A DNA stretch of 32,000 nucleotides from Candidatus Lokiarchaeum ossiferum (GTDB lineage: Archaea > Asgardarchaeota > Lokiarchaeia > Sigyniarchaeales > Promethearchaeaceae): positions 1,770,001 through 1,802,000 of the forward strand of contig CP104013.1 of NCBI GenBank assembly GCA_025839675.1, written 5' to 3'. The notes below the pieces were generated by a model. It was not told the origin of the DNA. It ran no database searches and saw only the letters and a program-made list of their open reading frames with translations. The position numbers were made by a program, and so were the translations under genes. This document shows positions 2,650 to 28,540 of the stretch, piece by piece; within the stretch, counting starts at the first letter, position 1, and each line of letters opens with the position of its first letter.

Positions 2650-4401
2650 ATGACTGAAATCGCAGCTGCAGATGATCTTAAGAGATTACGAGAAACCACA
2701 AATATCATCGAAAAGCTCATAATCATCCAAAGATTTGGATATTTAGACTCTTCTACAGTAATCTATCCAATATTAGAAGCAGTTTCTTTAGGTGAACAGG
2801 AGGTCATTGCACAAGCCACAGAATCACTTTTTAAATTAAAAAAATATCTTCTTCCATCCTTGAAATCAGAAATTACAAATCCCAATGCATTTATTAGATG
2901 GACTTTAACTCTAGTGATAAAAAAAATGAATGAACCTCGTTTTTTACCAATTCTGATTCCTGCATTGGGTTGTGGATATCGGCCAGTGGTAGAAATCATT
3001 TTGGAAACATTGAATCAATTAAATGCTGAAAGATTTCCGACAAAAAATCTCAAATCTGTTTTTCAAAACCTTTTACCAGATGAAAAAGAATCAGTTACAC
3101 ACTATGCAATTAGACAACTAGGAATTCTTGCATTGGACACAACAGAAACACTTTATGCTTTACAAAATTTGCATGATTTACGGTTTCCCAATGCGATTGT
3201 TCCCCTATTCAAAGTATTACATCATTCGGATTATAGAGTGAGAGATCAAGCAAGGAAAATACTAAATTCTTTTTCCAATGAAGAAAAATTGAAAATTTGT
3301 TTACAAACTATTAAGAACAAAGAGTTTTACAATGAAAACTATGATTTCCAACTTATCTCAGGAAGTAATTATCCTTTACATCTCTATGCAATTCAGGGGC
3401 TTGGATCTATTGGAAATGATACGGTAAATACGCGAAAAATATTATGGTCAATTTTGAGAGATGGAAATAAAGCAGAAAAAATCTTTGCACTGAAAGCTTT
3501 AGAACAACTACAAAAGAGTTCTAAAAACAAAATTCAAATCACCACTGAAATAAAAAATGAAATCACATCATTTCTGAACACACTTGAGGGCAAAAATAAG
3601 TTGATTGCAATTAAAACACTTGGAAGACTAGGAGAAGAATGGGCCACAACTACAATATCTTCACATTTAGACGATAAAGATCCTAAAATTCGTTTATCTG
3701 TAATAAATGCTTTAACAAATTCAAAACACCAAAACATAGTAGATAAAGTTGCGTATTTATTAATTGACAAAGACCGTCAGATTCGGCGGGCTACGGTACG
3801 CTTGTTTGAAGATTTAGACCGAGATTATTTTCAAATGCAAACAAGTGAAGGCAATGTTATTGACAAATTGCCAGAACCTATTAGAACGGAACTGTTAAAC
3901 AAACTTCTTGAAAAAATGCAGCATGAATCGGAAGATTACCAATGTTTTGCAACATTTTGGTTAGGTACATTAGGATACAAACCAGCGTATGATATTTTAA
4001 TAGGCAATCTTAAGAGTTCGTCAGAAAAATTGGTGTTAACCACCATTAATGCCTTGGGAATGCTTGGTTTAGCAAAAGCAATCCGTGAACTTATTCCATT
4101 TATATATTATATTAAAAATAACCAGATTCGGAAAAAAGCAATTGAAGTTATTGGTATGCTGGGAGAAGACAAGGAAGGACTTCACGCGTTAATCCATCAA
4201 CTTTTTTTACAAAAAGAAATCAATCCTCCATATTTAGAAGAACATATAATATCCTATGGAGCAGGAGTTATTCCCCTTCTTACTTTAGAAATTGAAAATG
4301 AATCTTCCATCCAGAGAAAAATTTTGCTCGAAAATTATTGTTCCAAAGTTAATGGTATGTATGAAGTTAAAAATAAACAAGATTTCAATATCTTATTATA
4401 A
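2650..4401 (+). CDS. HEAT/PBS-lyase-like repeat protein
   Basis: Repeated helical units carry the D/N-x-x-x-(V/I)R...A...L signature, e.g. HHSDYRVRDQARKILNSF, DDKDPKIRLSVINALTNS, LIDKDRQIRRATVRLFEDL, NNQIRKKAIEVIGMLG. No TM segment or signal peptide. Confidence 0.7.
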   Translation: MTEIAAADDLKRLRETTNIIEKLIIIQRFGYLDSSTVIYPILEAVSLGEQEVIAQATESLFKLKKYLLPSLKSEITNPNAFIRWTLTLVIKKMNEPRFLPILIPALGCGYRPVVEIILETLNQLNAERFPTKNLKSVFQNLLPDEKESVTHYAIRQLGILALDTTETLYALQNLHDLRFPNAIVPLFKVLHHSDYRVRDQARKILNSFSNEEKLKICLQTIKNKEFYNENYDFQLISGSNYPLHLYAIQGLGSIGNDTVNTRKILWSILRDGNKAEKIFALKALEQLQKSSKNKIQITTEIKNEITSFLNTLEGKNKLIAIKTLGRLGEEWATTTISSHLDDKDPKIRLSVINALTNSKHQNIVDKVAYLLIDKDRQIRRATVRLFEDLDRDYFQMQTSEGNVIDKLPEPIRTELLNKLLEKMQHESEDYQCFATFWLGTLGYKPAYDILIGNLKSSSEKLVLTTINALGMLGLAKAIRELIPFIYYIKNNQIRKKAIEVIGMLGEDKEGLHALIHQLFLQKEINPPYLEEHIISYGAGVIPLLTLEIENESSIQRKILLENYCSKVNGMYEVKNKQDFNILL

Positions 4402-5994: not shown

Positions 5995-7164
5995 ATGACT
6001 GAATTAATTTTGTGTGAAAAATGTGGAGAAGAAGCCCACTTCAATGATACATACTGTGCATATTGTGGTGCGAATTTAAAAATCCAAAAAAATGCATGGA
6101 AAGCAATAAATGAGCCAAATAATACAACAAATTTAATATTAGATGGCCAGTTTTTAGAAGTGTATTATGATTTAACTGCTAAATTAAAAAATCTAGAAAA
6201 TATAGATCTTGGTTTTGACCAACATCAACAATATTTCAAACAGTTATCTATTGAATTACAAGCATCTCAGGAAAAATTGAATACATTCCACAATTTTACT
6301 GAAAAAGAATTAAAAGATGTGGAAGATCTTAAAAAAATTACTTGGAAAAGCATCAAAGCAGGAGTTAAAGGTAATAAAGATGACTTGTTAAAGAAAGAAG
6401 AAGCAGAATATTTAAACGCCTTAAATAGAGAAGAATCTTTAAAACAAGATATTCTTGAACTTCAAAAAAGGTATTCAATTGCAAAAACAGAAATGGAACA
6501 CCTTTCTAGGCTGAAAAAGCAAAAGTATGATTATAACATCCAATTAATACGCTTGATCGATCAGGTATGCGAAGGAGTTCCAGATCCTATTGAAGATAAA
6601 ATTGAAGCAGATTTGTTGCAGTTAAAAAATCAATTACAACCCATTTCAGCCGAACGTATAAATCTGAAGAATGCTCTGGGCCATATTAGTAATGCTCAAC
6701 AACATTTTCAATTCACATTGAATAAGCTTGGAAGTGCTAAAGGATTAAGTGATTGGGACACTTTTTTTGGAGGAGGATTTCTCGCCGATTCAATGAAGCA
6801 CTCTCGAATGGCGGAAGCTCGAAATGGAGTCCAACAAGCCCAAAGAAGTTTGAATCGCGCCTATCAACTGGTTCCATCTCTACCCAAAATTCGCGGAGCA
6901 CAAGTAGAAGAAATGAATATGTTCTGGGACACATTTTTTGATAACATTTTTAGTGATCTCAATGCCCGAGAAAAAATTATTAGATCTCGCCATTCTGTAG
7001 AACAAGCATTTTATGAAACTCAGCAAGCATCCCAATGGTTAAACTCCCGAATAGTTGAGAAACAACAGATATTCCAAGGTATAAATTCCAAAATTCAAAG
7101 CAAAAGGCAAGATCTTATCAGAGAAAGAAAACGAATGATAGAAAACGCATTGAAACAACAATAA
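5995..7164 (+). CDS. N-terminal zinc-ribbon protein with long coiled-coil region; function unknown
   Basis: CEKCGEEAHFNDTYCAYCG is a C-x2-C-x10-C-x2-C ribbon at residues ~7-25. About 200 aa of heptad-like K/E/L/Q-rich sequence follows. The C-terminal region carries GGGFLADSM...WDTFFDNIFSDL. Confidence 0.7.
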   Translation: MTELILCEKCGEEAHFNDTYCAYCGANLKIQKNAWKAINEPNNTTNLILDGQFLEVYYDLTAKLKNLENIDLGFDQHQQYFKQLSIELQASQEKLNTFHNFTEKELKDVEDLKKITWKSIKAGVKGNKDDLLKKEEAEYLNALNREESLKQDILELQKRYSIAKTEMEHLSRLKKQKYDYNIQLIRLIDQVCEGVPDPIEDKIEADLLQLKNQLQPISAERINLKNALGHISNAQQHFQFTLNKLGSAKGLSDWDTFFGGGFLADSMKHSRMAEARNGVQQAQRSLNRAYQLVPSLPKIRGAQVEEMNMFWDTFFDNIFSDLNAREKIIRSRHSVEQAFYETQQASQWLNSRIVEKQQIFQGINSKIQSKRQDLIRERKRMIENALKQQ

Positions 7165-9109: not shown

Positions 9110-9832
9110 TTGGGAATTCGTGAAATTGAAGATCGAGCAAAAATGCGGGATTTGATGAAAAAAAAAGCCGCAGAATTGAGAATGCATCGTTTAGCAACTC
9201 AAACGGCAACAACGAAGATGACTAAAGAAAAACTCGCAGAAATCGCCAAAAAACATGGTGTAATTGTTGCGTTAGATCCTGAGATGAAGGAAATCATCGA
9301 AGAAATTCGGAAAAAATATAATATTCCAAAAGAACGAATTATTCGGGAAGAAATTACTGAAGAATCTGTTTTGAAAAAGGGCAAAAAAGTTGACATTAAA
9401 AAATTAGCGATGCTGTCCTATCAACGTGTAATGTTGGAAAAACAAGAAACAGGAGGATTATTGACTCTACCTGATGTTTTTGACATGATTAATACGGGAA
9501 GTCTTAAAAATAGAATCACCATGGATGATACAGAAAAAGCAGTAAAAATATTGAAGAAAGATAAGGTGATCCCTGAAATTAAAAAACTCCCAAGTGGAAT
9601 ACTAGCTATTTCATTTTTCCCTGTTCAATATACAAAGGATCAGACTTCAATCTTAGAACTAGTCACAGAAGATGGAGTTATCACCACAGGGGATGTTTGT
9701 AAGGCACTTAATTGGACAGTTGAAAGAGCAGAACGCGCTTTGCAAAATTTGGTTGACACTCGAGTAGCTCGAATTACCGAAACTTTTAGAACTGGAAAGA
9801 AATATTTCTTCCCAAGTTTGAAAACGAAATAA
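9110..9832 (+). CDS. ESCRT-II subunit, Vps22/Vps36-like (EAP30 domain, tandem winged helix)
   Basis: TTG start with AGGTG at 9098-9102 (7-nt spacer). It aligns by eye with human SNF8/EAP30: TGGLLTLPDVF vs NGGLITLEEL; KALNWTVERAERALQNLV vs ASLKWETERARQVLEHLL; KKYFFPSL vs AHYWLPAL. The N-terminal basic helix KKKAAELRMHRL resembles SNF8 KKKLAEAKYKER. Confidence 0.85.
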   Translation: MGIREIEDRAKMRDLMKKKAAELRMHRLATQTATTKMTKEKLAEIAKKHGVIVALDPEMKEIIEEIRKKYNIPKERIIREEITEESVLKKGKKVDIKKLAMLSYQRVMLEKQETGGLLTLPDVFDMINTGSLKNRITMDDTEKAVKILKKDKVIPEIKKLPSGILAISFFPVQYTKDQTSILELVTEDGVITTGDVCKALNWTVERAERALQNLVDTRVARITETFRTGKKYFFPSLKTK

Positions 9833-9867: not shown

Positions 9868-10749
9868 TTAAACAATTTTAAATTTTATTCCAAATTGGTT
9901 ATCGTCAAGTTCGACCACAGTTCCTTTATGGTTTTGCTCAATTTTACCAAAAATAATCTTAAGATCTTCTTCTGGTAAGTTGGAAAATTCTGTTTCTGAA
10001 TTGCGAATATCTGGAACCATAACCATATCAAAAATTGCATTATTTTTTGCCCAATCTTCGATTAAAGTGGTCCACTCTTCAATAGATTTCCAATAGACTC
10101 GAAGTTCTTCTTTTTTCTTTGGTTTATCGCCAACCCACTTTGCTAAATCTTTATCTATTAGAGCTTCCGCTAGGATAGAAATGGCTTTCTTTCTATCAAT
10201 GAATTTATTAAAGGGTTTTTCGGTTAATAAGCGTTTAGGATAAATGATATGGATAAGTCCAACATGAGCATAATCAAGTAATACTTGTGACCACTCTTCT
10301 CGCCATGATTCAAAATCCTGCTTGTTTTTCTTCTTATTAGGTGTTGAATACATAAATCCATATTGAGGTGCTTCAATCCAATCATGTATTTCTAACAATT
10401 TTTCATAAGGAGATTTAACCTTCACCTTTGCTTCTACCGCAACTTCTTGTTCAAGAGCAGCCATTTCGGCTGCAATTGAAGCATCATTGGTGGAAACTTC
10501 TAAAAGAATTTCTCCTTTGGTAGCCCCTTTAATCCCCTGTTGAATGGAAGATTCTAAATCATCAAGACCATCCACTTCAGAACCAGAATCTATTGATTCA
10601 GATTCTAAAGAATTCAATTGTGATTGAAGAGCTTCTAATTTCTGAAGTTTTTCGAGTTTAGCTAATTTCTCTTTCTTTTTTTTTTCTTCATTTATAGATT
10701 TAGATTTCTGTGATGCCTTCGGGCGTTGTTGTTCCGCGATATTTATCAC
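9868..10749 (-). CDS. vps25: ESCRT-II subunit Vps25-like with ~115-aa N-terminal coiled-coil/acidic extension
   Basis: The C-terminal ~175 aa align by eye with eukaryotic Vps25: [22 protein letters not shown] vs LIMWRRPEEWGKLIYQWVSRSG; [23 protein letters not shown] vs EFHGLDEATLLRALQALQQEHKA; the terminal GIKFK vs GVKFF. The GTG start overlaps the vps4 stop (GTGA at 10746-10749). Confidence 0.8.
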
Positions 10750-11963
10750 CCTCCGAATTCTTCAGTCCATTCTGCAAATTTTTGGAGCTCTTCTTCTGAC
10801 ACAACCGGTTTTATCTTTTGAATTACATTCAAGAAATCCTGTTGAGAAATGGGGCGAACTTTTAGCGAATCATCCCCTTCACCTAATTGACCTGCTACAT
10901 CTAATTCTCGAACAGGTAACATTACGACTTCACGGCATATGGTGGCGATATCTGATCCAGAATAGGTATCAGTTAATTCTCCTAAAGCATCGAAATCTAC
11001 TGTTTCATCCATTTCAATTTCTTTGGTGCATAATTGGAAAATTTTTGCTCGTCCTTCTTGCGTTGGAGGACCTACATAGATTTTTTTTTCAAATCGACGT
11101 AATACAGCACTATCAATAGACCAAGGAAGGTTCGTTGCCGCCATAAGGGTAACAATTTTATCTCCCGTACTTTTTACCCCTTGCATTTCTTGTAATATCT
11201 GGGTTTTCAAACGTCGTTCTCCGCCCCCTTCATTACCAGTTCCCCGTTTTCCTGCAATACTATCAATTTCATCCATGAAAATTAAGGAAGGAGCGTCCAA
11301 ACGAGCAACTTTAAAAAGCGTTTTTAATAGTTTTTCCGATTCCCCTAACCACTTGCTTACTAAGCTAGCCGAATCTGCAGCAAAAAATTGAACACCACAT
11401 TCATTCGCCGCGGCTTTTGCCAATAATGTTTTTCCACATCCGGGTGGACCAAATAATAATATCCCACGCCAAGGTTTTCGAGCACCCCTAAACAATTCAG
11501 GATGTGCCATTGGTAATACAACCGCTTCTCGGATCGCCTGTTTTGGATCCTCCATACCAGCCACATCACCCCAAGTCACTGTGGGTCTCTCAGTAACGAT
11601 TGTTCCTTCAATGGTTTTTCGTAATTCTTTTTCATCATCAGACATCTCGCTCTCTTCTTCTGAATCTTCAGAATCATCTTTTTTAGAATGATGACTATCT
11701 TTCTTTGGAGATCTGCCAGTGGGAACTTTTTCCTTCTTTTTGCGGTTAGTTAACTGATCCGCACGTTTAAAATATTGTAAGGCTTTTTCTTGTGCAAGAG
11801 CTTTAAGTTTAGAATTTTTACAAAATTTAGCGAAATCATTCAACGTTTCGCTGGCTTGCAAATATTTATCTGCAGCTGCATCATATTGTTTGCCTTGATC
11901 AAGCTGAATTGCTTCATTCGCAAGCTTAATAGCGGCATTGAAAATTGCGTTATCATTAGCCAT
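10746..11963 (-). CDS. vps4: Vps4-type AAA+ ATPase (N-terminal MIT domain + single AAA cassette)
   Basis: MIT-like helices: [31 protein letters not shown]. Walker A GPPGCGKT at nt 11430-11450. Walker [12 protein letters not shown] region [16 protein letters not shown]. Start chosen at ATG 11963, which has GGAG at 11973-11976 and a TATA-like ATATATAC at ~12003-12010 upstream. The longest ORF extends to a TTG at 12062. Confidence 0.9.
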
Positions 11964-12180
11964 GGGTTTAAACTCCAAGGGATCATTAGGATCCATTTCT
12001 TGGTATATATGTGTTATAGTTTTTTTAGTCTTTAAAATGCTTTTTAGTCTTATGATCTCCAATTTTTAGCATTCTGATTTCCATCCATTATATCAAGAAT
12101 CGGGTTATAATTTGAAAAGTTACTTTTTTCTCGGTAAAAGGGTATAAAATTCTTTTAAGGGATAAATTCCGACCAAAATT

Positions 12181-19535: not shown

Positions 19536-22500
19536 TTAAGAACGTTTAGATTTTCGAATTAACAACGCTGCTGCACCTAAAGAGGCAAAGATAAGTGCCC
19601 CCACAGCAAAGCCTGGAACACCACCTTCTTCTTCAGTGGTTGTTGTTTCAGTTTCAGTTTCGGTGCATGTTTCAGTAATGGTCACAGTAGGTGGAGTATA
19701 ATCACGATGAAGATACACTAGATCAATTTCATCCCCTTTTGGAACCATTCCATATACACCATCAAAGCAAACTGTCAAATAGAACTGAATTTCAGATGTT
19801 CCACCATAACCATCAATAACTTCAATTCTAATTGTATAATTCCCATCAGCTAAGCCTAAAGAACTATCTCCATAGATGGTTAGAGCAACATCTCCAACAA
19901 CCCAATCTCCACTTCCAACTTCAATATCATTTGCATAGATTGTATAATTTGCGTCTGCGATGCTTAAATCTGCAACATTGAATACTGCAGAAATATTTGT
20001 TGTAGATGCAATGAGTTCAAATCCACTTAATACAGGTGCATAATTGACCACATCAATATCTACTGTTTCTGAAGCAGAATATCCAAATTCATCATCAGCA
20101 ATAAGTTCAAATTCATATGTTCCAATGGCAGTTCCTGTGAAATCATAGGATACTAAATCTTCGAAATCACCAGTATCTACTTCAACACCATCTTGGAGTA
20201 AAGTATAATTACCACTTTTACATGTATCTGAAACATCAAACAATAAAGAGATTGTATCAGTTTGTTCTACTTCGGAATCTCCAATAAATTCAATAACAGG
20301 AGCAGAAGTATCATATAAGAACTTAGTAGATACAGTATGATCGAAGTTCCATCCAGCAGTTGAAGTGGTTACTAAATAGGTTCCTTCAGATACACCAGCA
20401 GCTTCAAGATCAAAATTCATGAGATCTCCTGGATCTACATTTGCAGTATATACTACATCTCCTAATACTGAGAAGGAAAGATAATACTCTACATCTGCTG
20501 GACCACTAGGATTATCAAACCATTCTATAACAATTTCATATAATCCAGTTGATGGAATAACTCCTTCAAAGTGTTCCGGTTTAGCACCAGTAGCAGATTG
20601 TCCAAATATATCAGAATCGAAATCATAAGGATCGCCCGCTCTGATAATTAATAGGTCAAAATCAGAATCATCTGACCAATCGAGTTCACCAACTGCATAG
20701 TCACCTTCATTTAGGAAAACAGTATAAGATGCTTCAATGGTCATTCCTCCAGCATACGCAACCAAATCTTCAGCCAACAATAATTCAGATTCTTCAAGAA
20801 CAACTGCAGATGTAATTTGCATAGTGTTGTTGTATGCATCATTTCCAAAGGCTGGAATTGCATTATCATCAACTACACTCCAATTCGCTGTGAAGTTGCT
20901 ATTTGTGATCATTACTCCCATAGGAGTCTCTACCATACCTGGAGTTGAGAAATCAACAGTTGGAACTGCAAAATCAGAAACAGATTCATTAGTCCAAGCA
21001 ACCTTCAATGAGAAGTTTTCCAAAGGTAATGTTTCAGCAACAGGGTCTAAATCTGTGGCATGAACAATTAGAGTAAACTGATCAAATCCATAACCCGTTG
21101 TTACATTTTCAGCCCATCCACCATAGAAGTAATTGCTTGAAGCATTTTCATAGTAATTATAAATATCTATGAGTAATCTTTGTTTAGTCTCTCCAGCATT
21201 TTCTGTTGAAATATAATGCCCACCAGCTGTGAAATAGTCGGTTTCACCAATAACATAACCTTCATGGTCTACAACCCACATATTCATCTCAGAACCAGCA
21301 TTAACCCACTCTAATTCGAGTAACATGGATTTAACATCTGAACGATTTGTGTATCCATCTAAAACAATATCATAGAATCGCCAATCTCCAGTTTCTGGAC
21401 GCCAATCGTAATCAGCACATCCATACAATCCATTGTCATTTGGTCTACCAGTTAATTGTCCATCACTTACAATTGTCCATCCATCTGCTTCGTATCCAGT
21501 TACATTTGCAGCGATAGTATAACCATAAGGAACAAGCATTTGATTATAATCTGTTGTGTTGAATATAACATATCCTTCATACATCCCAGGTACTGCATCT
21601 GTTTCAATATCAATGGTCACTTCATACTCACCGCCAGATGTTTCTACTACGGAAACACGACTATCATCAGTACGAGTAAAAGCTCGGACACTTAATGAGA
21701 AGTTTTGACCACTCCAAGGATAATACAATCCATGATCACACATATGATTGAAACCAGGATCTCTGATTCTTACAAACGCAGGATCTTCAGAAGCCTGAAG
21801 GAAATCAGTAGGTAAGAATAAATCTTGGAAATTATTGTTGTCATATGCATAGTTCACAAATGCAAAATCTTCTTCGCCAGAAATATTTGATTCTAAAGCC
21901 CCGACGTACATAATCGGAGGACGACCACCAAAAGTATCTCGGTAAAACTCTCCAACTTCATAGGGTACTGAAAATTCTAATTGGAAGTAATCAGCAGATC
22001 GTAATTGAGCAATATCAAATAGAGCTTCTATTGAGAAAGCAGAATAATAGTCATACGTCCTCAAATTTTCAACTACAGCAGTATAAGTGGTATCAAATGT
22101 AACATCTGCAAAATCAGCACCAGTTACGCCACCATCTAAGGTGACCGTTGAGGTGTAGGATTCTTCAGGGAATAAAGTACCACCGTAGATTGCGGTATCC
22201 TTCATTGTATAAGGTCCAAATAAAGGATGTTCATCAGTATCACTAGTTGTATTTATTATGTCTGCACGGCTATCCCAATAATAGAGTCCACCATCTATAT
22301 CTCGTCTAAACCAAGATGATGAATTAAAGTATCGGTGATAAGGAACTTCATAACGTTGGGCAGCAGTGGCGGTTGCATCAGTAGTATAGGCAACTAATAT
22401 ATCACTACTAGTTCCATCTGCATATTGAACTCCAGCAGAAACATTAATTCGTCCGGTCCCTTGCATATATGGATCATATCCAAAATCGTCAGCAGTACTT

Positions 22501-24674
22501 TTCATAATAGCCTTAGCCATGTCTGGATCTAAAGATTCTCCAGGATGCGCTGAAGCCCATGCTTGATAAATCAAAGCCATTCCACCTGCAAGGGCAGGAC
22601 ATGATGCGGAAGTTCCACCGAAAACATGATAGAAATATGGATTACCTACTGTAATTGGATTCAAACTCCAATCGAAGGCTCCAGGTGCGAGAATATCAAT
22701 TTTAGGATATCCTATATTTGATGGACCGTTATCACTCCATCCAATGACTTGATCAGCTATACCATAGCTTGCATTCCATTCTGTTGAAGTATTTCTCCAC
22801 CAATTTACGGTTGAAGCACCAACTGCAACAGCTGCGGTAGATTGACTTGGTTGTTTGCTTGTACCCATACCAGAACCTCCATTACCGGTTGAAGTTAAGT
22901 AGAGTACTCCAGGATAATCCGGATGCAAGAAGCCAGGAACAGATAGTAAATCAATAAACAAGGTTTCAAAATCCCAACCCATAGCAACATCATTTACTTC
23001 AACAGCACTGGTTCCCCAACTGTTTGAACTTATGTTAGCAATATGAGTGCTTTGAGGATTGAATGCCCAAATTCCATTAGCATCAGGTTCAAATCCTGCT
23101 GCCCATAACCATCCAAAAGTAGTTGCAGAATCGGAAAATCCAGCAGTAGCTAAAATTTTAGCTTCAGTTGACATTCCACCTATTGTGAACGTTTCATCAG
23201 ATGGTAAATCTTCATTTTCTAATAAAGTGTAATTAATTGGAGCACTTGCAGCTAATCCTGCACAACCTGTTCCATGACCACCAGTATCCCACAAGTGAGC
23301 AAGGGTTTTTCCATCTGCTGGGATACCAGTTACAATACCTCCACCAGTGTAATTATTTGTATCTAAAACGTTTGCAATTGATCCTAAAGAGATATCTGTA
23401 TATCCATCTAAAACACCATAATCTGTTGTATTCCATACGTCTTTGGATAATGCAAGATTTGCATTGTTTTTATGGGCAACTTGGCCAGTGAAATTAAACG
23501 GAGCGAGATCATACCATGAAGAATCACCAGTCAAGAACCCTTGTGTAATACAAAATCCGGATTCATAATCAACGTACAATGTGTCATAATCTCCATCATC
23601 GTCATCATCAGCTTCGATAAATGGTGTTATAGAAATAGTCCCGTCATTGTGAATTACACTCATTCCGAATGCAAAGCCAGTTACATTTCCATTGATTCCA
23701 GTTCCTACTGTATAAGTAGCAGGCATATTGAATCCAGTTCCATCAAATAATTGCCAGATTGGATTATAAAAACCGATATCTGGTGCATTTACAGGTAAGT
23801 TGTTGTATCCAGCTAAATAAATTGTTCCATTTTCGTCTGTATGTTTTGGTGAAAACCATCCATCCAATAACTCATAGGTACCATCACCAGGAGTAAAAAT
23901 ATCACCCCAAAAGTCCATAGCATTCAATGCAGTGAAAGACATACGACCGCTTGGTTCCAATGAAAGAGGATAACCATTTTCATCGACAGCCATTTGATTG
24001 CGTAAAGCAGTATGACCAAAATCAACGCCAGTATCATGAATTTGGATAACAATACCATCTCCATCATATCCAAGATCTTCAGCATCATCTACACTCATTA
24101 CTTCACGTGTTTCCACCGAATGAGGTTGAACAATGCCAGACTCATAATTTTCCATTGGTAGGAATTCGTCTGCTACATCAACATTTATATATTTCAAATC
24201 CTGAATATCTGCGTTTTTATCATAGGATGGCCCATAAAATTGGTCCGCTTCAATTTTTAAAACAGCAGGATTTGCTTGTAATTCTTCCATTTCCCGTAAA
24301 TTATCGACTGTAGTATGTACAAAACTATAGCCAGGGGATAATGGAACTATACCCAAAGGTTCGATTGTGCCACCTAAAGTGAAATCATCACCATAGACCA
24401 TAAGCATAAGACTTATTTCATCATTGATGATGTTCATAGATGCAGGTAGCTCATTTGTCTCTTTCCACTCAGAAAGAAAACCATCCAATTTTACATTAGA
24501 TCGATCGAATTTTGGAGTGTCATTAAATAACTCCGGTTGAGTTATACTCGATTTTTCAGTATCATTAGTTGTCATATTCAAAGAGATGACCATTGGCAAT
24601 ATAAATAATGTCAATGCGAAAACAACCAATGCTGGATTTCGAGCATTAGAGAATGAGAAATTTTTTACCTTCAT
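19536..24674 (-). CDS. Giant secreted subtilisin-like (S8) serine protease with C-terminal beta-sandwich repeats and PGF-CTERM anchor
   Basis: AGGAG lies 8 nt upstream of ATG 24674. Signal/anchor helix ALVVFALTLFILPMVISL. Catalytic triad contexts: IHDTGVD (Asp codon 24033-24035), GGHGTGCAG (His 23274-23276), GGTSASCPALAG (Ser 22608-22610). Thr/Glu linker and PGFAVGALIFASLGAAALLIRKSKRS at the C-terminus. Confidence 0.9.
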   Translation of the reverse strand: MKVKNFSFSNARNPALVVFALTLFILPMVISLNMTTNDTEKSSITQPELFNDTPKFDRSNVKLDGFLSEWKETNELPASMNIINDEISLMLMVYGDDFTLGGTIEPLGIVPLSPGYSFVHTTVDNLREMEELQANPAVLKIEADQFYGPSYDKNADIQDLKYINVDVADEFLPMENYESGIVQPHSVETREVMSVDDAEDLGYDGDGIVIQIHDTGVDFGHTALRNQMAVDENGYPLSLEPSGRMSFTALNAMDFWGDIFTPGDGTYELLDGWFSPKHTDENGTIYLAGYNNLPVNAPDIGFYNPIWQLFDGTGFNMPATYTVGTGINGNVTGFAFGMSVIHNDGTISITPFIEADDDDDGDYDTLYVDYESGFCITQGFLTGDSSWYDLAPFNFTGQVAHKNNANLALSKDVWNTTDYGVLDGYTDISLGSIANVLDTNNYTGGGIVTGIPADGKTLAHLWDTGGHGTGCAGLAASAPINYTLLENEDLPSDETFTIGGMSTEAKILATAGFSDSATTFGWLWAAGFEPDANGIWAFNPQSTHIANISSNSWGTSAVEVNDVAMGWDFETLFIDLLSVPGFLHPDYPGVLYLTSTGNGGSGMGTSKQPSQSTAAVAVGASTVNWWRNTSTEWNASYGIADQVIGWSDNGPSNIGYPKIDILAPGAFDWSLNPITVGNPYFYHVFGGTSASCPALAGGMALIYQAWASAHPGESLDPDMAKAIMKSTADDFGYDPYMQGTGRINVSAGVQYADGTSSDILVAYTTDATATAAQRYEVPYHRYFNSSSWFRRDIDGGLYYWDSRADIINTTSDTDEHPLFGPYTMKDTAIYGGTLFPEESYTSTVTLDGGVTGADFADVTFDTTYTAVVENLRTYDYYSAFSIEALFDIAQLRSADYFQLEFSVPYEVGEFYRDTFGGRPPIMYVGALESNISGEEDFAFVNYAYDNNNFQDLFLPTDFLQASEDPAFVRIRDPGFNHMCDHGLYYPWSGQNFSLSVRAFTRTDDSRVSVVETSGGEYEVTIDIETDAVPGMYEGYVIFNTTDYNQMLVPYGYTIAANVTGYEADGWTIVSDGQLTGRPNDNGLYGCADYDWRPETGDWRFYDIVLDGYTNRSDVKSMLLELEWVNAGSEMNMWVVDHEGYVIGETDYFTAGGHYISTENAGETKQRLLIDIYNYYENASSNYFYGGWAENVTTGYGFDQFTLIVHATDLDPVAETLPLENFSLKVAWTNESVSDFAVPTVDFSTPGMVETPMGVMITNSNFTANWSVVDDNAIPAFGNDAYNNTMQITSAVVLEESELLLAEDLVAYAGGMTIEASYTVFLNEGDYAVGELDWSDDSDFDLLIIRAGDPYDFDSDIFGQSATGAKPEHFEGVIPSTGLYEIVIEWFDNPSGPADVEYYLSFSVLGDVVYTANVDPGDLMNFDLEAAGVSEGTYLVTTSTAGWNFDHTVSTKFLYDTSAPVIEFIGDSEVEQTDTISLLFDVSDTCKSGNYTLLQDGVEVDTGDFEDLVSYDFTGTAIGTYEFELIADDEFGYSASETVDIDVVNYAPVLSGFELIASTTNISAVFNVADLSIADANYTIYANDIEVGSGDWVVGDVALTIYGDSSLGLADGNYTIRIEVIDGYGGTSEIQFYLTVCFDGVYGMVPKGDEIDLVYLHRDYTPPTVTITETCTETETETTTTEEEGGVPGFAVGALIFASLGAAALLIRKSKRS

Positions 24675-27053: not shown

Positions 27054-27710
27054 TTAATTTTTTCGACTTTCTTTGAGTTTCTTAATTTCTTCTTCAAGAT
27101 CTTCTATTTGTGCTTCAGGTTCATCAGAAATAGGAACGGAAGGTAATGCCATCACTGAATCCATACTCATTTCGGTGTCAATTTCGGCTAAAGCATTTTC
27201 CACTTCTGAATCGGACACTTCAGTCTCCGATGTCGCCCCTTCACTTTGCTCTAACTGAGAAGTAGTGGTATCCATCATCGCATCCATGCTTCCAAATCCA
27301 AGATCCATTTCTTTTAACATTTTGACCATTTCAGGCATTTTAACATTTAATTGAAGACCTTGCAAAGTGCCCACAATATCTTCTGCGACTTCATTAAATT
27401 GCCCCATTACCTTCGCTTGTTGCAATCGAAACTGAATGTTTTCAATTTTCATTCGAAAATGTTCTGTAGAATGACCCCATTTTCGGTATTGTAAGGAATT
27501 TTTCATATGAAGCTTGGAGCCAGCTATATCACCCGATTTACGAGCATCTATAGCCCGTTTTTTGGCCATTTTTTCTTGAACTTCGATTTTCCTGATTTGA
27601 CGGGCAAGACGTTTATTAAAAACTTTTATTTTAATTAGGGGGGAGGTAGTCTGTTCTTCATCACTAAACCCTCCGGAGAGCCATTCGGCAAATTTTTTCA
27701 TTGAACCCAA
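27054..27710 (-). CDS. ESCRT-III subunit, Vps2/24/46 (CHMP1-3)-like, paralog A
   Basis: 218 aa of Snf7-fold helical hairpin sequence. LQLNVKMPEMVKMLKEMD resembles CHMP2A LKLPQIQKIMMEFE. SDSEVENALAEIDTEMSMDSVMALPS resembles CHMP2A SDAVVSQVLDELGLSLTDELSNLPS. C-terminal MIM1-like helix IEDLEEEIKKLKESR. The start codon is TTG (27708-27710). Confidence 0.85.
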   Translation of the reverse strand: MGSMKKFAEWLSGGFSDEEQTTSPLIKIKVFNKRLARQIRKIEVQEKMAKKRAIDARKSGDIAGSKLHMKNSLQYRKWGHSTEHFRMKIENIQFRLQQAKVMGQFNEVAEDIVGTLQGLQLNVKMPEMVKMLKEMDLGFGSMDAMMDTTTSQLEQSEGATSETEVSDSEVENALAEIDTEMSMDSVMALPSVPISDEPEAQIEDLEEEIKKLKESRKN

Positions 27711-27734
27711 AAATTTTCACATTCCGTTATTACG

Positions 27735-27742
27735 TTATTTAA
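27735..27742 (-). promoter_or_regulatory. TATA-like core TTAAATAA for ESCRT-III paralog A
   Basis: The 8-mer TTAAATAA on the minus strand ends 24 nt upstream of start 27710. The identical 8-mer sits at mirrored spacing before paralog B. Confidence 0.4.
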
Positions 27743-27852
27743 TAAAGAAGTTGTTGGCTCCCTATTAAAGTATTTGTAGTCTTTTTGTTACTAAAATTTG
27801 GCCTCACAATCAATTATTAAGGATTGAAGCTATGTAACAGTTATATAGGATT

Positions 27853-27860
27853 TTAAATAA
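27853..27860 (+). promoter_or_regulatory. TATA-like core TTAAATAA for ESCRT-III paralog B
   Basis: The 8-mer ends 23 nt upstream of ATG 27884 and no Shine-Dalgarno is present, consistent with a leaderless or short-leader transcript. Confidence 0.4.
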
Positions 27861-27883
27861 AATACTGGAAGCATGAAAAACCC

Positions 27884-28540
27884 ATGGGTAGTATGAAAAA
27901 ATTCGCTAAATGGCTATCAGGTGACCGAAATAAGCGTGGAGTAGATCCTGTGCGTTCTACCATCACCAGCCTAAAAATATTTAATAAACGATTACAACGA
28001 CAAATACGTAAAATGGAACAGCAACAGAAACTTGCTCGAAAAAAAGCCATTGAACGGCGACAAGCAGGAGATATTCCTGGTAGTAAATTACATATGAAAA
28101 GTTCCCTTCAATTTCAAAAATGGACCCATAATACAGAAAATTTCCGTGTACGATTGGATGGAGTTCAATTCCGATTAGAACAAGCCAAAGCGATGGGAGA
28201 TTTTAGTAATGTTGCTCAAGATATAGTTTCAGCTTTAGGAGGCTTACAAATGCAAGTTAAAGCACCTCAAATTTCACAAATGTTAAGCCAATTGGATCTT
28301 GGTTTCGGGAATATGGAAGCCATGTTTTCCGAAACAAGTGAAGAGTTGGAAATGCAGGATGATGCAAGTGCAAGTGGTGTATCTGAAGATGAAGTGGAAA
28401 ATGCACTTGCCGAAGTGGACGCTGAGCTCTCAATTGGTACCCGTGAAGCCCTACCTTCAGTTCCAGGCATGGCCCCTGGTGAAGAAATCAGTGATCTTGA
28501 AAAGGAAATTCAACGTTTAAAAAATTCCCGAAATCAATAG
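27884..28540 (+). CDS. ESCRT-III subunit, Vps2/24/46 (CHMP1-3)-like, paralog B
   Basis: 218 aa, roughly half of residues identical to paralog A by eye. Shared blocks: MGSMKKFA, FNKRL, RQIRK, GSKLHMK, VQFRLEQAK, DLGFG, VENALAE, ALPSVP. C-terminal MIM1-like helix ISDLEKEIQRLKNSR. Confidence 0.85.
   Translation: MGSMKKFAKWLSGDRNKRGVDPVRSTITSLKIFNKRLQRQIRKMEQQQKLARKKAIERRQAGDIPGSKLHMKSSLQFQKWTHNTENFRVRLDGVQFRLEQAKAMGDFSNVAQDIVSALGGLQMQVKAPQISQMLSQLDLGFGNMEAMFSETSEELEMQDDASASGVSEDEVENALAEVDAELSIGTREALPSVPGMAPGEEISDLEKEIQRLKNSRNQ

Follow-up and report, generated by a model that had tools for sequence, protein, structure and literature searches.

In Asgard archaea, ESCRT-III, one of the endosomal sorting complexes required for transport, is commonly shown as a minimal two-subunit model of the eukaryotic machine, with one A-type and one B-type protein. 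A-type subunits comprise CHMP1-3, IST1 and Asgard ESCRT-IIIA, while B-type subunits comprise CHMP4-7 and Asgard ESCRT-IIIB (Souza et al. 2025, PMC11804906), and reviews and primary papers describe Loki- and Heimdallarchaeota as having two ESCRT-III proteins. In Heimdallarchaeota AB_125, ESCRT-IIIB recruits ESCRT-IIIA to form composite polymers; ESCRT-IIIA is recruited late by the B-type subunit, prefers highly curved membrane and binds the MIT domain of Vps4 (PMC11804906). In Loki GC14_75, the two proteins are CHMP1-3 (KKK42122.1) and CHMP4-7 (KKK44605.1; PDB 9fn1) (Melnikov et al. 2025; Lu et al. 2020), and the part of the Makarova 2024 table covered here gives one A-type, a 209-aa Vps24-family gene directly after Vps4. 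For the cultured Promethearchaeum syntrophicum MK-D1, passages of a recent preprint name CHMP4, CHMP1A and CHMP1B, with names given by the nearest human neighbour (bioRxiv 10.1101/2025.11.01.685982). More distantly, Sulfolobus CdvB, CdvB1 and CdvB2 are lineage-specific ESCRT-III paralogues that form a composite polymer stepwise, and CdvB proteins are without the MIT-interacting motif 1 (MIM1). Here we describe a pair of divergently transcribed ESCRT-III genes, copyL and copyR, in a 32,000-nucleotide stretch of the Candidatus Lokiarchaeum ossiferum genome (contig CP104013.1, positions 1,770,001 to 1,802,000; hereafter the window, in which all positions are given unless another locus is named).

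We consider it likely that copyL and copyR are ancient A-type paralogues that stem from a single duplication in a Promethearchaeaceae ancestor, have been neighbours since, mostly head-to-head, and act as late ESCRT-III subunits recycled by Vps4. Compared with the Heimdall two-subunit system, the locus has two A-type subunits rather than one.

Results

CopyL (27054..27710, minus strand) and copyR (27884..28540, plus strand; L. ossiferum NEF87_001478) lie head-to-head with 173 bp between them. Each open reading frame encodes 218 aa, from an ATG start in copyR and from a TTG in copyL, which would encode 215 aa from the ATG at its codon 4. The two proteins align over their full length by BLASTP with 118/218 identities (54%), 77% positives and an E-value of 1e-84, a similarity far beyond chance. 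Both pass the Pfam gathering score of 27.3 bits for Snf7 (PF03357), copyL with 31.8 bits (1.4e-7) and copyR with 47.1 bits (2.8e-12). A first-pass annotation, made from the letters of this DNA, had described a head-to-head pair of equal-length ESCRT-III paralogues sharing roughly half of their residues; the reading frames, the BLASTP identity and the Snf7 scores confirm both the pairing and the degree of similarity. The equal length holds for the two reading frames and is a coincidence, because orthologues span 215 to 231 aa and NCBI lists copyL with 215 aa.

The N-terminus MGSMKKFA, which had been read as common to both proteins, is indeed present in both reading frames, for copyL only if the TTG start is used. 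Codon 1 of copyL is TTG (27699-27710 for the first four codons), codon 4 is ATG in both genes (copyR 27884-27895), and the NCBI annotation starts copyL there. Both copies keep Gly2-Ser3 but encode the serine by codons of different families (TCA vs AGT), which argues that codons 1-3 of copyL are translated. Among orthologues, codon 1 is ATG, TTG or ATH, or the start lies 2-6 codons upstream; the GS(L/I/M)KKF motif of helix α0 is conserved whatever start is used, and annotated lengths therefore vary. The copyR protein is identical to L. ossiferum UYP45193.1 (strain B35) and XEO76513.1 (strain B36), which are annotated as 'hypothetical' or 'Snf7 family protein'. At the DNA level, the window is distinct from strain B36, with 93-97% identity to its chromosome (CP163304; bioRxiv 10.64898/2026.02.13.705702), and it matches a Logan contig of run SRR32148622 at 100% identity.

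Profile searches, an exhaustive hidden Markov model (HMM) search and neighbor-joining trees agreed in assigning both copies to the A-type family (Vps2/24/46, CHMP1-3, Asgard ESCRT-IIIA; asCOG cog.001760), the family that the first-pass annotation had proposed. First, a family profile built from 39 members and searched against the PDB matched CHMP1B at 7.8e-12, CdvB at 1.7e-7, Vps24 at 3.2e-7, CHMP2A at 4.3e-7 and CHMP3 at 1.9e-6; among B-types it matched Heimdall ESCRT-IIIB at 5.7e-5 and Loki CHMP4-7 at 0.44, and it had no Snf7 or CHMP4 match in the PDB. Second, a HMMER search of 1.84 billion representatives returned 457 relatives, 101 of them full-length and scored against reference proteins. 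Among the relatives that were not Asgard-like, scores were 100-238 bits against human CHMP1B or 132-162 bits against CHMP2A, and none of the 101 exceeded 38 bits to Snf7, Heimdall ESCRT-IIIB or Loki CHMP4-7. Third, neighbor-joining trees separated A-types from B-types at 94% and 97% bootstrap and placed the pair on the A side.

The grounds first offered for this assignment, an 'LPS' box and an LxxxIxxLK tail, did not survive. These motifs do not discriminate because Heimdall ESCRT-IIIB, a B-type protein, has both, and a MIM1-like tail is evidently not A-type-specific in Asgard archaea. As a control for both types we used a Helarchaeota locus, of which 12.6 kb were examined and in which Vps23-Vps28-Vps22-Vps25-Vps4 are followed by an A-type gene, HerA and a B-type gene. 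Its A-type protein, encoded next to Vps4, matched CHMP1B at 1.4e-12, while its B-type protein matched Loki CHMP4-7 at 4e-17 and Snf7 at 1e-7. The Loki CHMP4-7 (9fn1) sequence was recovered with this B-type query; a PDB query with the C-terminal 66 aa of Heimdall ESCRT-IIIB matched only itself, not 9fn1. Against the NCBIfam equivalogs for CdvB, CdvB1, CdvB2 and CdvB3 the pair reached only 16-18 bits, compared to cut-offs of 170-370, and NCBIfam returned nothing further.

The duplication that produced the pair is old. Synonymous sites between copyL and copyR are saturated (proportion of synonymous differences, pS, ~0.73), so the ratio of nonsynonymous to synonymous substitution rates (dN/dS) between the two copies is uninformative. 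At least seven further loci carry both copies: strain B36, GCA_964413395, GCA_963986595 (L013), Ca. Harpocratesius repetitus, the metagenome-assembled genome (MAG) HM1_B6_4, a Logan contig and a Promethearchaeum sp. MAG (L003). The copies are head-to-head and directly adjacent in six of these seven and split in one; a further, deeper MAG carries them in tandem. A scan of genome contigs gave at least six loci, and the phyletic distribution is incomplete to that extent. In L013 (8935-10657) the whole pair is flipped with respect to its conserved methyltransferase/THUMP/PfkB flank. Lokiarchaeum, Promethearchaeum and Harpocratesius all belong to the Promethearchaeaceae, and on this comparison the duplication is a feature of the family and not of this genome. 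The earlier claim that it was specific to this genome or genus falls with the saturated synonymous sites and the presence of both copies in several genera; 'lineage-specific' survives only at roughly the family level, relative to the Helarchaeota locus with one A-type gene in its 12.6 kb. In the neighbor-joining tree, the Helarchaeota A-type protein is the outgroup and a Lokiarchaeal group of 205-221 aa proteins, which we call L007-type, joins the duplicated clade as its sister at 96%, a placement that is poorly resolved in a broader tree.

Both copies are under purifying selection and have diverged asymmetrically. In comparison with strain B36, copyL has a dN/dS of 0.043 and copyR a dN of 0 at a dS of 0.19. 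Against its orthologues copyL reaches 62, 64 and 56% identity, compared with 83, 74 and 71% for copyR, and identity to the L007-type sister group is 37.5% for copyL and 44.7% for copyR. Eight positions are fixed differently between the copy clades (R24T, I27L, L30I, R58A, F77Y, L91M, D106Q and Q136E), with the sister group having the copyR state at four of the eight. The net charge is -7 in copyL and +1 in copyR, and in the linker between α0 and α1 copyR is basic where copyL is acidic or neutral. CopyL, which evolves faster, appears derived and copyR conservative; copyR probably keeps the ancestral role, with copyL as a specialised partner or variant.

An AlphaFold2 model of copyR (predicted local distance difference test, pLDDT, 79) shows the expected ESCRT-III architecture of an α1-α2 hairpin, α3-α5 and a C-terminal tail, with helices predicted at residues 2-11 (α0), 22-60 (α1), 64-124 (α2/3), 128-158 (α4), 168-189 (α5) and 205-216 (α6). 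Foldseek with this model found ESCRT-III folds, namely CdvB, CdvB2, CHMP1B, IST1, CHMP2A/3 and Asgard ESCRT-IIIB with Sulfolobus CdvB proteins at the top; A-type and B-type proteins are not separated by Foldseek.

Both proteins end in a MIM1-like amphipathic helix at residues 203-216, which is SDLEKEIQRLKNSR in copyR (28490..28531, plus strand) and EDLEEEIKKLKESR in copyL (27063..27104, minus strand). The consensus for MIM1 is (D/E)xxLxxRLxxL(K/R), and L205, I209, L212 and K213 fit its hydrophobic and basic positions, with E208 in place of its Arg. All 39 family sequences have L190, P191, E208, I209, L212 and K213, and at least 90% of them have L205, S192 and P194. About 10 residues before the helix, between it and α5, both copies have an LPSVP motif (residues 190-194; copyR 28451..28465, plus strand; copyL 27129-27143). 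This motif resembles LPxVP, which we take to be the core of the MIM2 (Type 2) motif of Snf7, CHMP4 and CHMP6. In the A-type protein IST1, tandem Type 2 and Type 1 MIMs bind VPS4 together (PMC9477494). Because IST1 also has a Type 2 MIM, the MIM2-like LPSVP is not exclusive to B-types, and the succession of LPSVP and terminal helix resembles the tandem layout of IST1. Asgard A-type tails have been described as MIM1-like with Leu-to-Ile changes, with a distinct binding mode predicted for Loki (Lu et al. 2020). When the MIT domain of the window Vps4 is aligned to that of yeast Vps4, L64 is replaced by Phe, E68 by Asp and N65 by Lys; L64 is a MIM1-groove residue of the yeast domain, and L64D abolishes MIM1 binding. 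A charge-swap covariation between Glu208 and the Vps4 MIT domain was considered and rejected, since the acid is kept at the position of yeast E68 and only N65 is changed to a basic residue.

The divergent intergenic region (27711..27883, 173 bp) is AT-rich. By eye, a TATA-like box is present for copyL at ~27736-27747 and for copyR at ~27850-27862, 28-32 nt from the start codon of each gene. A central conserved block, TTTGGCCTCACAATCAATTATTAAGG (27797-27822), is partly common to L009 and Harpocratesius, and an alignment with four orthologous intergenic regions showed conservation of TTTAATAAA and of TTGGnCTC...TTAAGG blocks. The central block may serve as a regulator site or belong to a core promoter. 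This arrangement is consistent with back-to-back promoters and coordinated transcription of copyL and copyR, and the conservation of head-to-head adjacency across genera suggests that the two genes are co-regulated.

Other ESCRT genes are encoded in the same window. As noted in the first-pass annotation, a Vps4 with an MIT domain lies at 10.7-12.0 kb: the ATPase gene (10746..12062, minus strand) has Pfam matches to MIT (1.8e-11), AAA (3.4e-38) and Vps4_C (8e-12), and its product is the presumed disassembly and recycling partner of the pair. It is co-directional with a gene for a Vps25-like ESCRT-II subunit (9868..10749, minus strand; Pfam ESCRT-II 8.6e-10), next to which an EAP30 or Vps22-36-like ESCRT-II subunit is encoded on the other strand (9110..9832, plus strand; Pfam EAP30 1.3e-12). 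Vps4 is followed by a transaldolase and a dehydrogenase resembling 6-phosphogluconate dehydrogenase (6PGDH), and the A-type pair is 15 kb away. A B-type gene elsewhere in L. ossiferum is indicated by published orthogroup tables, in which an orthogroup of L. ossiferum and MK-D1 is annotated cog.001938, the Vps20 family (Makarova 2024). A search for the Lokiarchaeal B-type family gave 345 matches. There was no sign of a third A-type gene in L. ossiferum in searches that were not exhaustive for that genome.

Several neighbouring genes were recorded as separate observations. Near the ESCRT-II/Vps4 cluster, the window encodes a 583-aa HEAT-repeat protein (2650-4401; HEAT_2 1.7e-26) and a 389-aa protein (5995-7164), whose gene is 2 kb upstream of the ESCRT-II genes and which combines a zinc ribbon at the N-terminus with a long coiled coil. 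Pfam and NCBIfam assign the latter nothing but the zinc ribbon, and it might be one of the Asgard Zn-ribbon/coiled-coil/steadiness-box ESCRT-I-like proteins. Between this cluster and the A-type pair is a gene for a 1712-aa S8 subtilase (19536-24674), a hypervariable large protease with a 50% identical homologue in L015; there is no BLASTN alignment to B36 over ~19.3-24.6 kb, and the flanks are 93-97% identical. In two other Lokiarchaeal MAGs (L016, 4890-10666; L017, 4108-10627), an L007-type A-type ESCRT-III gene is directly downstream of a giant open reading frame. The giant products, of 1672 and 1876 aa, are homologous (34% identical) and have no Pfam match. Genes for an Arf-like GTPase and for HEAT/adaptin(-N)-like proteins are found near these loci, and L016 also encodes an AAA ATPase of 385 aa with 35% identity to the ATPase domain of Vps4, for which no MIT match was recorded.

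Discussion

If copyL and copyR are long-standing A-type paralogues that act late, as we favour, a mechanism can be proposed, with Heimdall ESCRT-IIIA/B and the A-type subunits of eukaryotes as analogues. Each copy would be a complete subunit, with an amphipathic α0, the α1-α2 hairpin, α3-α5, the LPSVP box and the terminal MIM1-like helix. Downstream of ESCRT-II, a single B-type subunit, encoded elsewhere in the genome, would nucleate on the membrane. Both A-type paralogues, expressed from back-to-back promoters, would then join late and narrow the membrane, by co-polymerisation or sequential action, and Vps4, encoded 15 kb away, would engage their C-terminal tails via its MIT domain, so that the polymer is remodelled and recycled.

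Several observations weigh against this account. First, our trees are neighbor-joining trees of Kimura distances, not maximum-likelihood trees, with partial reference sequences taken from PDB alignments, and support inside the pair clade is weak (74% for the copyR clade, with copyL a grade). Second, the C-terminal helix that the first-pass annotation had read as a MIM1 stands in its hydrophobic and basic positions and departs from the motif at the consensus Arg, where the family has the invariant Glu (E208); in the copyR model this helix, at residues 205-216, is predicted with low confidence (pLDDT ~57-64). Third, no ESCRT-III gene adjoins Vps4 in the window, unlike in GC14_75 and Helarchaeota, and the 12 B-type clusters that we opened (P0052, P0102 and ten more) contained no L. 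ossiferum member. Fourth, the arrangement of the pair is not strict: in the Promethearchaeum sp. MAG (L003, 1563-4860) the copies are separated by an M3 oligopeptidase gene, and in the deeper MAG (L006, 5233-6684) they are in tandem on one strand, which may be the original state, so that a shared promoter is not obligatory. Lastly, the best single-sequence PDB match of copyR is Heimdall ESCRT-IIIB (9ftl), at 1.1e-6 vs 7.5e-6 for CHMP1B, and BLASTP also favours this protein, at 4e-11 vs 2e-6 for CHMP1B.

The strongest alternative, which we regard as possible but somewhat unlikely, is that the copies are subfunctionalised and do not form an obligate heteropolymer, each instead building its own homopolymer together with the B-type subunit, in separate processes or under separate conditions, such as vesicle release as opposed to protrusion or division-related remodelling. 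The asymmetric evolutionary rates, the different net charges and the loosened adjacency in L003 and L006 would all be expected under separate action, and related lineages manage with one A-type subunit (the Helarchaeota locus L008 and, in the part of the table covered here, GC14_75). However, head-to-head adjacency is kept in six of the eight related loci across genera, suggesting co-regulation, and only eight clade-fixed differences distinguish copies whose tails and α0 are nearly the same. A bolder form of the late-acting A-type pair is that the Promethearchaeaceae independently evolved a machine of one B-type and two co-regulated A-type subunits, in which copyL and copyR would form an obligate A-A' co-polymer. 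We hold this to be doubtful. If true, this would make it a convergent equivalent, in a prokaryote, of CHMP2-CHMP3 or CHMP1B-IST1, and in vitro work with a single Loki 'CHMP1-3' would miss the A-A' co-polymer.

It is very improbable that both copies are B-type (Vps20/32/60-like), as the single-sequence matches of copyR to Heimdall ESCRT-IIIB might be taken to indicate. The window proteins and Heimdall ESCRT-IIIB have in common an N-terminal xWLxG(K/R) motif (xWLxGxxxK), an LPxV box and an LExE[IL]xxLK tail (LExELxxLK in Heimdall ESCRT-IIIB), and it is these shared N- and C-terminal motifs that make Heimdall ESCRT-IIIB the top single-sequence match. By contrast, the profile search reverses the ranking by seven orders of magnitude, the exhaustive HMM search leads to proteins of CHMP1- and CHMP2-like type but not to Snf7-like ones, the trees place the pair with the A-types, and the Helarchaeota orthologue, in the A-type position beside Vps4, matches CHMP1B at 1e-12. 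The pair is scarcely conceivable as an A-type and a B-type gene, one from each canonical Asgard family, the set that Asgard genomes are usually described as having: copyL and copyR are 54% identical to each other, whereas true B-types (Loki CHMP4-7, Hel_B) are ~21-23% identical to the pair where alignable at all and lie beyond the 94-97% bootstrap split of the trees, and Lokiarchaea have a separate, highly conserved B-type family, that of the 345 matches. The recent, genome-specific inverted duplication first proposed from the equal length, the identical 8-residue N-terminus and the mirror arrangement is refuted, with next to no likelihood left, by a pS of 0.73 and by orthologues of each copy in several genera, and recent gene conversion is rejected as an explanation for the identical N-termini because the shared residues use different synonymous codons.

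The view that Asgard genomes have one member of each ESCRT-III family, from which the first-pass annotation had started, is a simplification, as the preprint passages on MK-D1 already describe CHMP4 together with CHMP1A and CHMP1B. Going by those passages, two CHMP1-like paralogues in the Promethearchaeaceae are on record, and the pair is neither genome-specific nor unprecedented. MK-D1 resembles L. ossiferum in having two CHMP1-like proteins and one CHMP4-like protein, in belonging to the same family and in being cultured. The passages do not discuss the paralogy, genomic pairing or distribution of CHMP1A and CHMP1B, and we found no published description of the conserved pairing, distribution and asymmetric divergence of the pair described here. 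The Promethearchaeum sp. MAG has orthologues of both window copies and differs in the M3 peptidase gene between them; this comparison is with the MAG. Our finding is therefore an incremental refinement and not a new kind of system. Cultured Lokiarchaeia in which cell biology is feasible (L. ossiferum and MK-D1) carry B + A + A', with the A-type genes kept together and under selection since before the genera diverged, so reconstitution and localisation in these organisms should include both A-type subunits.

Among better-known systems, the window proteins belong to the same A-type family as ESCRT-IIIA of Heimdallarchaeota AB_125, but there are two A-type subunits here, not one, and they have motifs in common with the Heimdall B-type protein; the supplement of Souza et al. 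2025 holds no Loki information. GC14_75 is similar in having a Lokiarchaeal A-type protein with a MIM1-like tail (Lu et al. 2020) and different, in the part of the Makarova 2024 table covered here, in its one A-type gene directly next to Vps4, where the window has none and the pair lies 15 kb away. KKK42122.1 was absent from the 14 clusters that we opened. Sulfolobus CdvB, CdvB1 and CdvB2 are likewise lineage-specific paralogues and gave the top Foldseek matches, but belong to a different clade. A further parallel is with Vps2-Vps24 (CHMP2A-CHMP3) and CHMP1B-IST1, which are also duplicated A-type subunits and in eukaryotes act late and jointly, binding the Vps4 MIT domain via C-terminal MIMs. 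Unlike these, the pair described here, known from sequence, arose by an independent and much shallower duplication (54% identity) and has Glu in place of the MIM1 Arg. It offers a small, independent natural experiment on A-type specialisation after duplication, to be set beside the larger-scale one of eukaryogenesis.

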